A stretch of 64,000 nt of DNA from Vulcanimicrobiota bacterium (lineage in GTDB: Bacteria; Vulcanimicrobiota; Vulcanimicrobiia; Eremiobacterales; Eremiobacteraceae): assembly GCA_963805945.1 (NCBI GenBank), contig CAWDVP010000003.1, positions 128,001 to 192,000 on the forward strand. The letters run 5' to 3'. Each line of letters opens with the position of its first letter. Within the stretch, counting starts at the first letter, position 1. Below the pieces are notes generated by a model. It searched no databases and was not told the DNA's origin. It was given only the letters and a program-made list of their open reading frames with translations. A program made the position numbers and the translations under genes. Below are positions 29,184 to 32,283 of the stretch, piece after piece.

Positions 29184-30368
29184 ATGATCGTCCTTGGCCG
29201 GTTCTCCGGCATCGAAATCCGCGCACACTACTCGACGCTGCTCGTCTTCGGTGCGCTGACGAGCATCCTCGCGTACGGCTATTTGCCCGTCGTCACACCT
29301 GCCGCCGGTCCGCTCGAACGCCTGGCCGTGGCCATCATCGTCGTCACGTTTCTCGCAGGCTCGATCGTCGCGCACGAGCTCGGCCATGCCTGGGTCGCGA
29401 CGCGTCGCGGTCTGACCGTCAGCGGCGTCACGCTCTACCTCTTCGGCGGACTCGCGCAGATCAGCGGCAGCAGGTCGACGCCGACCGACGACATCGCGAT
29501 CGGTCTCGCCGGCCCGACGGTGAGCGCGCTCGTCGCCGCCATCTTCCTCGCCGGCGCCGCGGCGCTCATGCCCATCAACAAGCAGACGGCGCTGCTGCTC
29601 TCCGACATCGGCTTCGCGAACGCGCTGCTCTTCATCGTCAACGCGCTGCCCGGCTATCCGATGGACGGCGGCATGGTGCTGCGCGGCTTGATCTGGAAGG
29701 CGAGTGGCAACGTCGTCGCCGCCACACGGCGCGCGACGATGTCGGGCAAACTCTTGGCGTACGCGATCGCCGCCGCCGGCATCTGGATGCTGCTGCGCGG
29801 CGACGTGCTCGAGGGCATGTGGGTCGTCCTCATCGGCTGGCTGCTCGCAGGGCTCGCGGAAGGCGCGTACCGTTCGATCATCGTGCGCATCGCGCTCGAG
29901 GGGCTGCACGCCAAGGATCTCTGCGCGCGCGACCTGCCGTTGCTCCAGACCTCGGATTCGGTCGCGGCCGCGTCGGCGATGTTCGGCGCGGGCGCGTCGT
30001 CGCGCGTGCTCGGCGTGATGTTCGGCGAGCGCTTCGCCGGCTTGGTCAGCGACGTCGACGTCGCACGCGTCGCGCCGGATCAGGCGCAGTCCGTCACGGT
30101 CGCGTCCGTCATGCAGCGCGCCGGCGGCCAGCCGACGCTCGATGCCGAGTGCGATGCGCTCGATCTGCCGCACGCGGCGGCCTTGAGCGCGGCTCGCTGC
30201 GTGGTCGTCGTGGACGAGCGCGGCGACTATCTCGGCATCGTGCGCCAAGAGGACATCGCGCGCTATGTCGACATGATCGAGGCGCTCGCGAACTCGGCCG
30301 AGGTGTCCACGCGCCGGCTCAAACGGCTGTTGCCGAAACGGCCGGTGAATGTGGGGGTCGATCTTTAG
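29184..30368 (+). CDS. Site-2 protease (M50) with CBS domains, SpoIVFB/Rip3-like
   Basis: HELGH, LFGGLA, IGLAGP, NALPGYPMDGG; C-terminal CBS pair. Confidence 0.92.
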   Translation: MIVLGRFSGIEIRAHYSTLLVFGALTSILAYGYLPVVTPAAGPLERLAVAIIVVTFLAGSIVAHELGHAWVATRRGLTVSGVTLYLFGGLAQISGSRSTPTDDIAIGLAGPTVSALVAAIFLAGAAALMPINKQTALLLSDIGFANALLFIVNALPGYPMDGGMVLRGLIWKASGNVVAATRRATMSGKLLAYAIAAAGIWMLLRGDVLEGMWVVLIGWLLAGLAEGAYRSIIVRIALEGLHAKDLCARDLPLLQTSDSVAAASAMFGAGASSRVLGVMFGERFAGLVSDVDVARVAPDQAQSVTVASVMQRAGGQPTLDAECDALDLPHAAALSAARCVVVVDERGDYLGIVRQEDIARYVDMIEALANSAEVSTRRLKRLLPKRPVNVGVDL

Positions 30369-30420
30369 ATCGACCCCATGCGGCGTAGCTAACGGCCGAC
30401 CTAAAGGTCGGCCGCTACAT
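30349..30420. repeat. Inverted REP doublet (REPIN/BIME-like)
   Basis: GGGGTCGATC-TTTA-GATCGACCCC on the + strand and ATGTAG-CGGCCGACC-TTTA-GGTCGGCCG on the - strand, facing each other. Confidence 0.88.
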
Positions 30421-30426
30421 TGGCCG

Positions 30427-30954
30427 TTAACGCGTGATCTCGATCTCCAGCGCGTTGTTCACCCGATTGAAGTAGTTGAACAGACCGATCGAGCAGATGA
30501 TCTCGACGATCTGCGCGTCGCTGTAGTGCCGTCGCAGATCATCCCATAACGGTTGCGCGAGGCCCGTCGCGTCTTTGGTCAGCGCCTCTGCCGCGGCGAG
30601 CGCGGCCTTCTCAGCGTCGTCGAAGCGATCGCTGTTCGCGTAGTCGCGCAGCGCTGCGATCGTCGCGTCATCCGCTCCGGACCGCCTTGCCAAGGCGGTG
30701 TGCGAGGCCATTCAGTATTCGCACGAATTGAGCGTCGACGTAAGCGAGATGCACAACTCCTTGAGCCGCTGCGGCACAGCGCCGTCGCGGGTGACCGCGG
30801 CCATATGCTCCGCCGCGGTGCGCATGATCTCGGGCGAGATCGCGAGCGTGCGGAACATGTTCGGATAGTTGCCGCGCGCCTTGAAGAAGCCCTCGAGCAC
30901 CGGCTTGGCGGCTTCGGGCGCGTCCTTCGGATCGAGAGCGGGAAGTCTGGGCAT
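30427..30954 (-). CDS. AhpD/carboxymuconolactone decarboxylase family peroxidase-related selenoprotein (UGA at 30712-30714 read as Sec)
   Basis: One frame MPRLPALD...KELCISLTSTLNSCEY-TGA-MASH...FNYFNRVNNAL; the UGA occupies the second Cys of the CxxCxxxH motif. Confidence 0.85.
30681..30699 (-). promoter_or_regulatory. Putative bacterial SECIS hairpin
   Basis: ACCGCCTT-GGC-AAGGCGGT, a perfect 8-bp stem beginning 12 nt after the UGA, with G at the start of the loop. Confidence 0.65.
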
Positions 30955-30996
30955 ACAGGAAGCATCCGTTACACCCGGCAACTTCCTCGACCTTCG

Positions 30997-32283
30997 ATGA
31001 AAGCAACGCGCAGTCGCAACGCTGACATGTTCGCACGCGCCGCCGCATCCATCGCGGGTGGGGTCGATTCGCCGGTGCGCGCTGGCGTGCCCATGGGCGG
31101 GCCACCGCCCGTGCTGGAGCGCGCGCAAGGCAGCCGCGTCTACGATGTCGACGGGCGCGAATACATCGATTATGTGTGCGCCTATGGTCCGGTGCTGCTC
31201 GGCCATGCTGACGCGCGCATCACACGCGCGGTGCAGGCCGCGCTCGCTGATGGTGCGGTGTTCGGCGCCACGCACCCGCACGAGGTACGGCTCGCCGAGC
31301 GCATCCGCGGACACATGCCCTCGATGGAGCGGCTGCGTTTCGTCAATACGGGCACCGAGGCGTGCATGAGCGTGATGCGCGTCGCGCGCGCGTTCACGCA
31401 GCGCGAGACGATCGTGCGCTTCGCCGGCAACTATCACGGCCACAGCGACGAGATGATCTTCTCGGCGGGTGCATCGTCGAACTCGGCGCCGACGCTCGCT
31501 TCAGGTGTCACGCGCGCCGTCATCGCGGGCGTCGCGGTCGCGCCGTACAACGATCTCGACGCGGTCGAAGCGCTGCTGCTCGACAGGACCGTGGCCGCGC
31601 TGATCCTCGAGCCGGTCGTCGGCAACATGGGTCTGGTGCTGCCGGGGGACGGATACCTGGCCGGCCTGCGCGCGCTGTGCGATCGCGCCGGCACGCTGCT
31701 CGTGTTCGACGAGGTGATCACCGGCTTTCGGCTCGGCATGGGCGGCGCGCAGGCGCGCTACGGCGTGCGGCCGGATCTCACGTGCATCGGCAAAACGCTG
31801 GGCGGCGGCCTGCCCATCGCGGCCTTCGGCGGCCGTGAAGACGTCATGGCCGCGCTCGCACCGCAAGGCACCGTGTTCCAAGGCGGCACGTTCGCGGGCA
31901 ATCCGGTCTGCGTCGCCGCCGCGCACGCGTTCCTCGACGCGCTCGAGAGCGATCCTCATTTCCACGCTCGGTTGGAGACGCTTGCGCAGCGGCTCGCGCG
32001 CGGGGCGAAGGCAGCGCTTGCGGACGCGCGGCTCGACTATCCGGTCGTACAGCTCGCGTCGATCGTGGATTTCGCGTTTCGCGCCGGCGCACCGCCGCGG
32101 AACTACGCCGAAGCCGCGCAAGCCGACGACGAGGCCTACGCGCGCTACTACTGGGCGATGCTCGAGCGCGGCATCCACCTGCCGCCGTCGAAGATGGAAG
32201 TCATGTTCGTCACCGCCGCGCATACAGAAGAAGATATCGACGTCACGATCGCGGCGATGCGGGAGGCGTTGACGGTCGAATAA
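30997..32283 (+). CDS. hemL: Glutamate-1-semialdehyde 2,1-aminomutase
   Basis: GGVDSPVRA, YGPVLLGH, GTEACM, YHGHSD, FDEVITGFR, GKTLGGGLP, GTFAGNP. Confidence 0.95.
   Translation: MKATRSRNADMFARAAASIAGGVDSPVRAGVPMGGPPPVLERAQGSRVYDVDGREYIDYVCAYGPVLLGHADARITRAVQAALADGAVFGATHPHEVRLAERIRGHMPSMERLRFVNTGTEACMSVMRVARAFTQRETIVRFAGNYHGHSDEMIFSAGASSNSAPTLASGVTRAVIAGVAVAPYNDLDAVEALLLDRTVAALILEPVVGNMGLVLPGDGYLAGLRALCDRAGTLLVFDEVITGFRLGMGGAQARYGVRPDLTCIGKTLGGGLPIAAFGGREDVMAALAPQGTVFQGGTFAGNPVCVAAAHAFLDALESDPHFHARLETLAQRLARGAKAALADARLDYPVVQLASIVDFAFRAGAPPRNYAEAAQADDEAYARYYWAMLERGIHLPPSKMEVMFVTAAHTEEDIDVTIAAMREALTVE

Follow-up and report, generated by a model that had tools for sequence, protein, structure and literature searches.

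A predicted AhpD-like selenoprotein gene with an in-frame UGA and a SECIS-type hairpin in a Vulcanimicrobiota genome

In public sequence collections, one gene of a Vulcanimicrobiota bacterium (assembly GCA_963805945.1) is stored as two proteins, of 80 residues (named 'hypothetical protein') and 94 residues, whose reading frames are the same and are separated by a single TGA. The question raised by this locus is whether the TGA ends a gene or is read through as selenocysteine (Sec, U). The locus lies in a stretch of 64,000 nucleotides (nt) of contig CAWDVP010000003.1 (positions 128,001 to 192,000), referred to here as the window, and coordinates below are those of the window unless another contig is named. 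Comparison with related genomes strongly supports the Sec reading of the UGA (30714-30712), and the locus is very probably a genuine Sec-encoding gene of the known AhpD-like family. Read in this way it would be one intact gene for a 175-residue AhpD-like thiol/selenol oxidoreductase of the carboxymuconolactone decarboxylase (CMD) fold, in which UGA codon 81 is Sec.

The coding sequence (CDS) of this CMD-family selenoprotein occupies 30427..30954 on the minus strand, with an ATG start at 30954-30952, a TAA stop at 30429-30427, and 175 codons before the stop when TGA is translated as U. The codon predicted to be read as U81 (30712..30714, minus strand) is the only in-frame TGA of the CDS. It stands in the context L-N-S-C78-E-Y-U81-M-A-S-H85, and translation gives the redox motif C78-E-Y-U81-M-A-S-H85 (CxxUxxxH) at 30700..30723. 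Both ends of the CDS are supported by orthologs, which can be aligned over residues 1-175 and share an MPRLPA or MARLPA start. An earlier note on this DNA, which did not state the strand, had described a 175-residue frame obtained by reading through a single in-frame TGA, a CxxU redox motif, and a hairpin with a GGC loop that begins 12 nt past the UGA and has its loop about 20 nt away. All of these are present in the sequence once the minus strand is set, and the histidine of the motif, H85, was found to be invariant across 49 aligned homologs.

The search for close orthologs (E ≤ 1e-45) covered 61 relatives at first and was then extended to a sample of 401 Eremiobacterota genomes. Nineteen genomes, including the present one, contained such an ortholog, and in 15 of them the gene carried exactly one TGA, always at the same column. 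Three of these 15 genomes (G013, G259 and G261) are flagged as unpublished, and the other 12 agree. The remaining four orthologs carried cysteine (Cys) in three cases and leucine in one. The three Cys forms belong to a single genus and have C78 replaced by Thr or Ala, giving the motif [A/T]-P-Y-C. The nearest Cys-form orthologs are loci L026, L027 and L028 of genus g4 and, among database proteins, P0002-P0023. Loss of the Sec trait was considered as the cause of the Cys forms and was rejected, selA being present in this genus too (genomes G009, G018 and G024).

The same pattern was found at greater distance. A scan of one genome per species yielded 79 related loci, the closest of which (83%) are titled Candidatus Eremiobacteraeota or Vulcanimicrobiota and the rest of which come from Acidobacteriota (mostly Thermoanaerobaculia and Terriglobia) and Chloroflexota. 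The motif reads C-x-x-TGA in 72 of these loci, C-x-x-TGC in five and T-x-x-TGC in two; when six loci from one deposit series were removed, TGA was present in 66 of 73. Full-length homologs in protein databases (n = 120) are Cys forms because gene callers stop at TGA: 114 have Cys at the column, in TxxC (80) or CxxC (34), and six have other residues. In three of these six the Sec column is occupied by W or G (C-E-Y-W or C-E-Y-G), which may be TGA translated under another code. The Joint Genome Institute (JGI) name for the Cys homologs is 'uncharacterized peroxidase-related enzyme', and these are single proteins of about 175 residues. Against five TGA orthologs, the ratio of nonsynonymous to synonymous substitution rates (dN/dS) was 0.11-0.18 downstream of the UGA, compared with 0.16-0.32 upstream, and the part after the UGA is, as judged from these comparisons, under purifying selection.

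Departures from the CxxU and Cys patterns were also seen. In loci L054 (G379) and L058 (G215) and in proteins P0037 and P0040 the first Cys is kept and the second position has neither Cys nor Sec (N-[YF]-C-Q-P-[LS]-L-I-A-H-R). Separately, a distant CMD-family paralog in a related genus (L041; G012:C10:20868-21176) has one in-frame TGA of its own (V-G-C-G-L-U-I-E-I-N), with a possible 5-base-pair (bp) hairpin bearing the loop GGUCG located 12 nt past the TGA.

The hairpin downstream of the UGA resembles a bacterial selenocysteine insertion sequence (SECIS). It lies at 30681..30699 on the minus strand, inside codons T86-A-L-A-R-R-S92, and has the form ACCGCCUU-GGC-AAGGCGGU, with an 8-bp stem made of a 5' arm at 30699-30692 and a 3' arm at 30688-30681 and a 3-nt GGC loop at 30691-30689. 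The stem begins 12 nt and the loop 20 nt from the UGA. The bacterial SECIS model of bSECISearch, as outlined in PMC13188914, has a loop of 3-9 nt, a stem of 4-16 bp, a G in the first two loop positions, a UGA-to-loop distance of 16-37 nt and a minimum free energy of -7.5 or lower; the present hairpin lies within each of these limits (3-nt loop, 8 bp, G first in the loop, 20 nt, -11.8 kcal/mol). Compared with the bacterial SECIS consensus its loop is very small (3 nt) and a bulged base is absent, and its role as a SelB site is a prediction. Two of the codons that form it are rare in this genome: across 689 long frames, TTG accounts for 8.8% of the codons for Leu and AGG for 2.6% of those for Arg. 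A scan of 30200-31200 against Rfam at E ≤ 1 returned no SECIS family, its only matches being chance-level ones to mir-1245 and PyrR205, and a promoter and terminator scan of the same interval found neither.

Folded alone with 3 nt on each side, the hairpin had a predicted energy of -11.8 kcal/mol (z = -2.63), and 2 of 200 shuffled sequences were as stable; judged by this single sequence it rises little above chance, and it is conservation and covariation in other genomes that make it significant. RNAalifold independently predicted the same 8-bp helix from 13 Eremiobacterota TGA forms, an alignment from which genomes flagged as unpublished were excluded; 99% of its cells pair, and three pairs show double changes. 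Extended to 67 distinct TGA forms of three phyla the alignment is free of gaps, so the helix always starts 12 nt past the UGA. In this larger set all but two of the 469 cells of the inner seven pairs were paired (467), the outermost pair was mostly A·C, two-sided changes were present in seven of the eight pairs, and the first loop base was invariably G. The stem itself differs between clades, CCUU/AAGG being replaced by CGCA/UGCG in Thermoanaerobaculia, UCUU/AAGA in Terriglobales and CCGC/GCGG in Chloroflexia. The covariation score of the 67 forms was 0.493, as against 0.136 for shuffled alignments (none of 500 reached the observed value) and at most 0.107 with slid partners; kinship alone can let sequences outscore shuffles without any structure, and this caveat is answered by the slid-partner control and by the clade-specific stems. 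In the three Cys-form orthologs, an almost identical peptide, S-A-L-A-R-K, is encoded by different codons, from which the hairpin cannot form.

The genome (2.3 Mb in 8 contigs, completeness 81.9%) also contains what Sec decoding would require. A selA gene was found with 501.8 bits against a cut-off of 267.9; selB lies directly downstream of it, selD is also present, and a tRNA-Sec gene is located about 5 kb from selB (78.4 bits in Rfam against 47, with anticodon UCA assigned by ARAGORN). The UCA anticodon occurs in tRNA-Sec only, and tRNA-Trp of this genome has CCA. Two further genes outside the window carry a TGA at their active sites. One is selD itself (locus L151; G000:C2:536047-536977, minus strand), which reads S-C-A-G-U-A-S-K. 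The other encodes a BCP/PrxQ-type peroxiredoxin (G000:C2:352200-352667, plus strand; locus L150, positions 301-768; PF00578, 1.3e-36), in which a TGA at the peroxidatic position (F-Y-P-K-D-H-T-S-G-U-T) is followed after 12 nt by a 7-bp hairpin with the loop AGUUCC, and in which a second TGA is the ordinary stop at the end of the gene. Sec decoding is accordingly predicted for at least three genes of this genome. Of the 401 genomes sampled across the phylum, among which 13 are flagged as unpublished, 334 had a selA score above the cut-off; of the 247 high-quality genomes, 212 had selA at E ≤ 1e-60, and Sec use appears from these gene searches to be the rule in this lineage (Eremiobacterota). 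The remaining proposals of the earlier note thus agree with the comparative data: homologs show Cys aligned to the TGA, as expected if Sec replaces the second Cys; TGA forms retain the hairpin through compensatory changes, and Cys forms have lost it; and the machinery implied for the lineage (selA, selB, selD and tRNA-Sec with anticodon UCA) is all found in the genome.

The family of the product was assigned from domain models and a predicted structure. The Pfam domain PF02627 (CMD) matched residues 41-124, spanning the UGA, at 1.1e-16 with 61.1 bits (cut-off 23). TIGR00778, which represents the AhpD core domain, was also matched above its threshold (37.3 against 27.8), and the model for canonical AhpD of the Mycobacterium tuberculosis type, TIGR00777, scored 17.3 bits against a cut-off of 191.95. 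The best match in NCBIfam was TIGR01926, 'peroxidase-related enzyme', aligned from residues 3-171 to positions 2-173 of the 178-position profile. An AlphaFold model built on the 49 homologs was all-helical, with nine helices and high confidence values (pLDDT 95.9, pTM 0.90), and placed C78 immediately before helix 79-91; Y80, residue 81 and S84 were invariant in the 49-homolog alignment, as was H85. In Foldseek comparisons the model reached TM scores of 0.85-0.89 with 6k40, 2prr, 2oyo and 6ohi/6ohj (Bmp8), and 0.60 (E = 0.17) with M. tuberculosis AhpD (1knc). By sequence the closest solved protein was the debrominase Bmp8 (6ohi; E = 1.2e-15, residues 7-173), whose CxxC is in register with C78/U81. 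The domain models and the predicted fold place the protein in the AhpD/CMD superfamily, and with the UGA read as Sec it would also show the feature of the AhpD-like selenoprotein family, a CxxU motif in which Sec replaces the second Cys of CxxC.

Several points weigh against this interpretation. Support for Sec at U81 is comparative throughout. In a 66-nt fold (66% G+C) the hairpin was absent from the minimum-energy structure and present in the centroid; the stability of this longer segment (z = -0.24) was no greater than that of shuffles and was dropped as an argument. With C standing for U, TIGR01926 scored 78.4 bits, 3.4 below its curated cut-off of 81.8, and the protein is a member of neither of two selenoprotein-specific NCBIfam models of AhpD type, which have a related fold and a CxxU-type motif, scoring 70.3 against a cut-off of 310 with NF053654 (YciW-related (seleno)protein, aligned over residues 1-171) and 47.2 against 175 with NF041238 (AhpD_rel_CFYUT). 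Both scores lie far below the cut-offs, and annotation by those models would therefore not flag the gene. No conserved redox neighbour was found in the genus. Finally, selD of this genome carries one frame break, between ...A-A-F-P-E-S-G and L-P-L-T-V-L-L, which if real would leave this organism unable to make Sec. A decaying Sec trait was judged an unlikely explanation of the break, and an assembly indel is likelier, because the same assembly breaks rpoB and rpoC (G000:C6:229973-237060, outside the window) into five differently framed pieces each and selD is a single frame in five relatives (active site Cys in two, TGA in three). In two other examined genomes of the genus the selD active site is Cys. 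Indel errors are clearly numerous in this assembly and probably also account for the other breaks noted in the window and for the completeness being estimated at 82%.

If the UGA is decoded as proposed, the steps would follow the established bacterial pathway. SelD would supply selenophosphate and SelA would convert Ser-tRNA-Sec to Sec-tRNA-Sec; SelB, with GTP and Sec-tRNA, would bind the hairpin through its G-first loop and deliver the tRNA to the ribosome, and translation would proceed. In the finished protein, the predicted attacking residue is U81, which lies within the first turn of helix 79-91; C78 would resolve the oxidised selenium as a selenenylsulfide, and H85 may take part in a proton relay, as in the CxxCxxxH of AhpD-type proteins. 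In M. tuberculosis AhpD, the two Cys and the His have roles in a CxxCxxxH-type motif. The role would most likely be reduction of an oxidised peroxiredoxin-type partner, or of a small hydroperoxide or disulfide.

A peroxiredoxin partner is suggested by the fold, the motif and a neighbouring gene in another phylum, and stays conditional because the genus has no conserved redox neighbour. Indirect support for such a partner comes from the predicted Sec-peroxiredoxin gene elsewhere in this genome and from the Acidobacteriota neighbours described next. Here the gene is on its own: upstream, a hemL-like aminotransferase gene on the opposite strand diverges from it, and downstream an M50/CBS protease gene converges on it. 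Two genomes of the genus share this layout. In 11 Acidobacteriota loci, mostly of Thermoanaerobaculia (L089, L091, L093, L100, L106, L107, L113, L114, L115, L128 and L133), prs and an L25 ribosomal protein gene lie upstream on the same strand, and in four of the 11 (L093, L115, L128 and L133) a Redoxin/AhpC-TSA gene lies directly downstream, again on the same strand. This arrangement fits the neighbouring Prx-like and AhpD-like selenoproteins known from marine surveys (PMC2398784, PMC13188914).

Among the alternatives, the one that survives best accepts the decoding of Sec and assigns the protein another reductive chemistry, such as a thiol-dependent dehalogenation like that of Bmp8. Bmp8 is the best solved-structure match by sequence and among the best fold matches (TM 0.85), and the absence of a redox partner gene beside the gene in this genus would suit such a role. 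However, identity to Bmp8 is just 26-27%, AhpD-type structures from Deinococcus and others (6k40, 2oyo and 2prr) are equally good fold matches, and both the Redoxin/AhpC-TSA gene of the Acidobacteriota loci and the neighbours described in the literature point to peroxiredoxin-linked chemistry. The mechanism of Bmp8 was given no weight as evidence, and a Bmp8-like role is considered improbable.

The readings in which the UGA does not encode Sec survive far less well. A nonsense mutation or base-calling error, leaving a broken or mis-assembled gene, might be suspected in an assembly as error-prone as this one, with its fragmented rpoB and rpoC, broken selD and incomplete gene content. Yet the errors observed are indels, not substitutions. 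Since 14 other close orthologs share the TGA at this column, as do 72 of 79 loci across three phyla, and since a covarying hairpin and a downstream half under apparent purifying selection follow it, an error or mutation is highly implausible. Equally little favours a true stop followed by a second, 94-residue protein that restarts at the adjacent AUG. Such a restart would be consistent with the ATG directly after the UGA here and with the separate storage of the two halves in public collections, but the codon after the UGA is CTG, ACG, AAC, GAC, GGG, AGC or others in the orthologs, most of which have no start codon there, and no restart is conserved. Moreover, PF02627 crosses the UGA, the two halves make one compact and confident fold, and the Cys-form homologs are single proteins, so that two separate products are very hard to credit. 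A changed code or a suppressor tRNA that would insert an ordinary residue (Trp, Cys or Gly) at the UGA, for which W or G at the column in 3 of the 120 database homologs could be cited, has hardly any likelihood, given that only tRNA-Sec has the UCA anticodon and tRNA-Trp has CCA, that TGA still serves as an ordinary stop in genes such as that of the peroxiredoxin, that the position is that of the redox Cys in CxxC, and that it is followed by a SECIS-type hairpin, for which a reassigned code would have no use.

The relationship between the Sec and Cys forms was examined in a quick maximum-likelihood tree of 60 sequences (14 of the 19 Eremiobacterota orthologs, 23 of the 79 loci and 23 of the 120 database homologs; G013, G259, G261, G268 and G379 were left out, motif columns were kept and U was written as X). 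The Eremiobacterota sequences formed one clade (support 100), within which the TxxC Cys forms made up one clade (support 100) beside three Sec groups. The tree needs at least five Sec/Cys changes, four of them forced by well-supported branches, and Sec gain and Sec loss are indistinguishable in it because the root is not known.

A Cys three residues before the TGA was present in 72 of 72 loci and in 15 of 15 close orthologs, and Thr was present at this -3 position (TxxC) in 80 of 114 full-length Cys forms, including the entire nearest Cys clade, in which the hairpin has been lost as well. It is possible, if doubtful, that Sec is coupled to the neighbouring Cys in this clade and that the Sec and Cys forms are not simple equivalents. 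An independent-pairs test of the CxxU/TxxC coupling was underpowered, with four to five independent Sec/Cys contrasts, of which the -3 residue changed in the same direction in one to two and in the opposite direction in none. The coupling of CxxU and TxxC, as read from these alignments, is an observation and not a demonstrated rule. If true, it would mean that the selenol needs a resolving thiol, as in a selenenylsulfide cycle, and that most Cys enzymes of the family use a single Cys in a peroxiredoxin-like TxxC setting.

Two inverted repeats were observed in the intergenic gap where the M50 protease gene and the selenoprotein gene converge. One, at 30354-30377, has the form GGGGTCGATC-TTTA-GATCGACCCC, and the other, at 30385-30418, is imperfect, starting with GTAGC and ending with GCTAC.

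As the earlier note had rightly held, AhpD-like selenoproteins have been reported before (PMC1088965, PMC2398784). A 2005 report on the Sargasso Sea introduced AhpD-like CxxU proteins as a selenoprotein family new at the time, with 27 sequences assigned to COG2128 (Zhang, Fomenko & Gladyshev, PMC1088965). In the Global Ocean Sampling data 'AhpD-like 1' ranked fourth in abundance among prokaryotic selenoprotein families, being represented by 299 selenoproteins and 902 Cys homologs (Zhang & Gladyshev 2008, PMC2398784). A 2026 review has the entry 'AhpD-like protein, TIGR01926, CxxU' (PMC13188914), and a 2026 database paper uses the AhpD-like family as a browsing example (PMC13326102).

The present protein is like this family in its CMD/AhpD core, its length class, its CxxU motif with Sec second, its many Cys homologs, and a SECIS-type hairpin that immediately follows the UGA and has a G in its small loop. 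Unlike the published AhpD-like sets, which come from marine metagenomes, the present clade comes from metagenome-assembled genomes of Eremiobacteraeota/Vulcanimicrobiota, Acidobacteriota and Chloroflexota. It shares with M. tuberculosis AhpD (1knc, 1gu9) an all-helical fold and a CxxCxxxH-type motif at the start of a helix, but that protein is a distant relative, and here Sec replaces the second Cys. Bmp8 (6ohi, 6ohj) and the 'uncharacterized peroxidase-related proteins' 2oyo, 2prr, 2pfx and 6k40 are the closest solved structures (E = 1.2e-15 to 1e-6), with a CxxC that aligns to C78/U81, although all of these are Cys proteins, none has Sec, and identity is 22-28%. A literature search found no paper containing both 'Eremiobacterota' and 'selenocysteine'.

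The gene adds a member to the already known AhpD-like CxxU selenoprotein family, and the understanding of how selenoproteins work is unchanged by it. The SECIS alignment of three phyla, with its 12-nt offset, loop G and seven covarying pairs, provides a clean set for a family-specific SECIS model. The chief value of the finding is a correction of annotation, in that the 80- and 94-residue 'proteins' would be one gene, and the split annotation affects a whole clade of soil bacteria, given the TGA in 72 of 79 related loci. For the biology of the lineage, these comparisons indicate that selenocysteine decoding is in use in Eremiobacterota.

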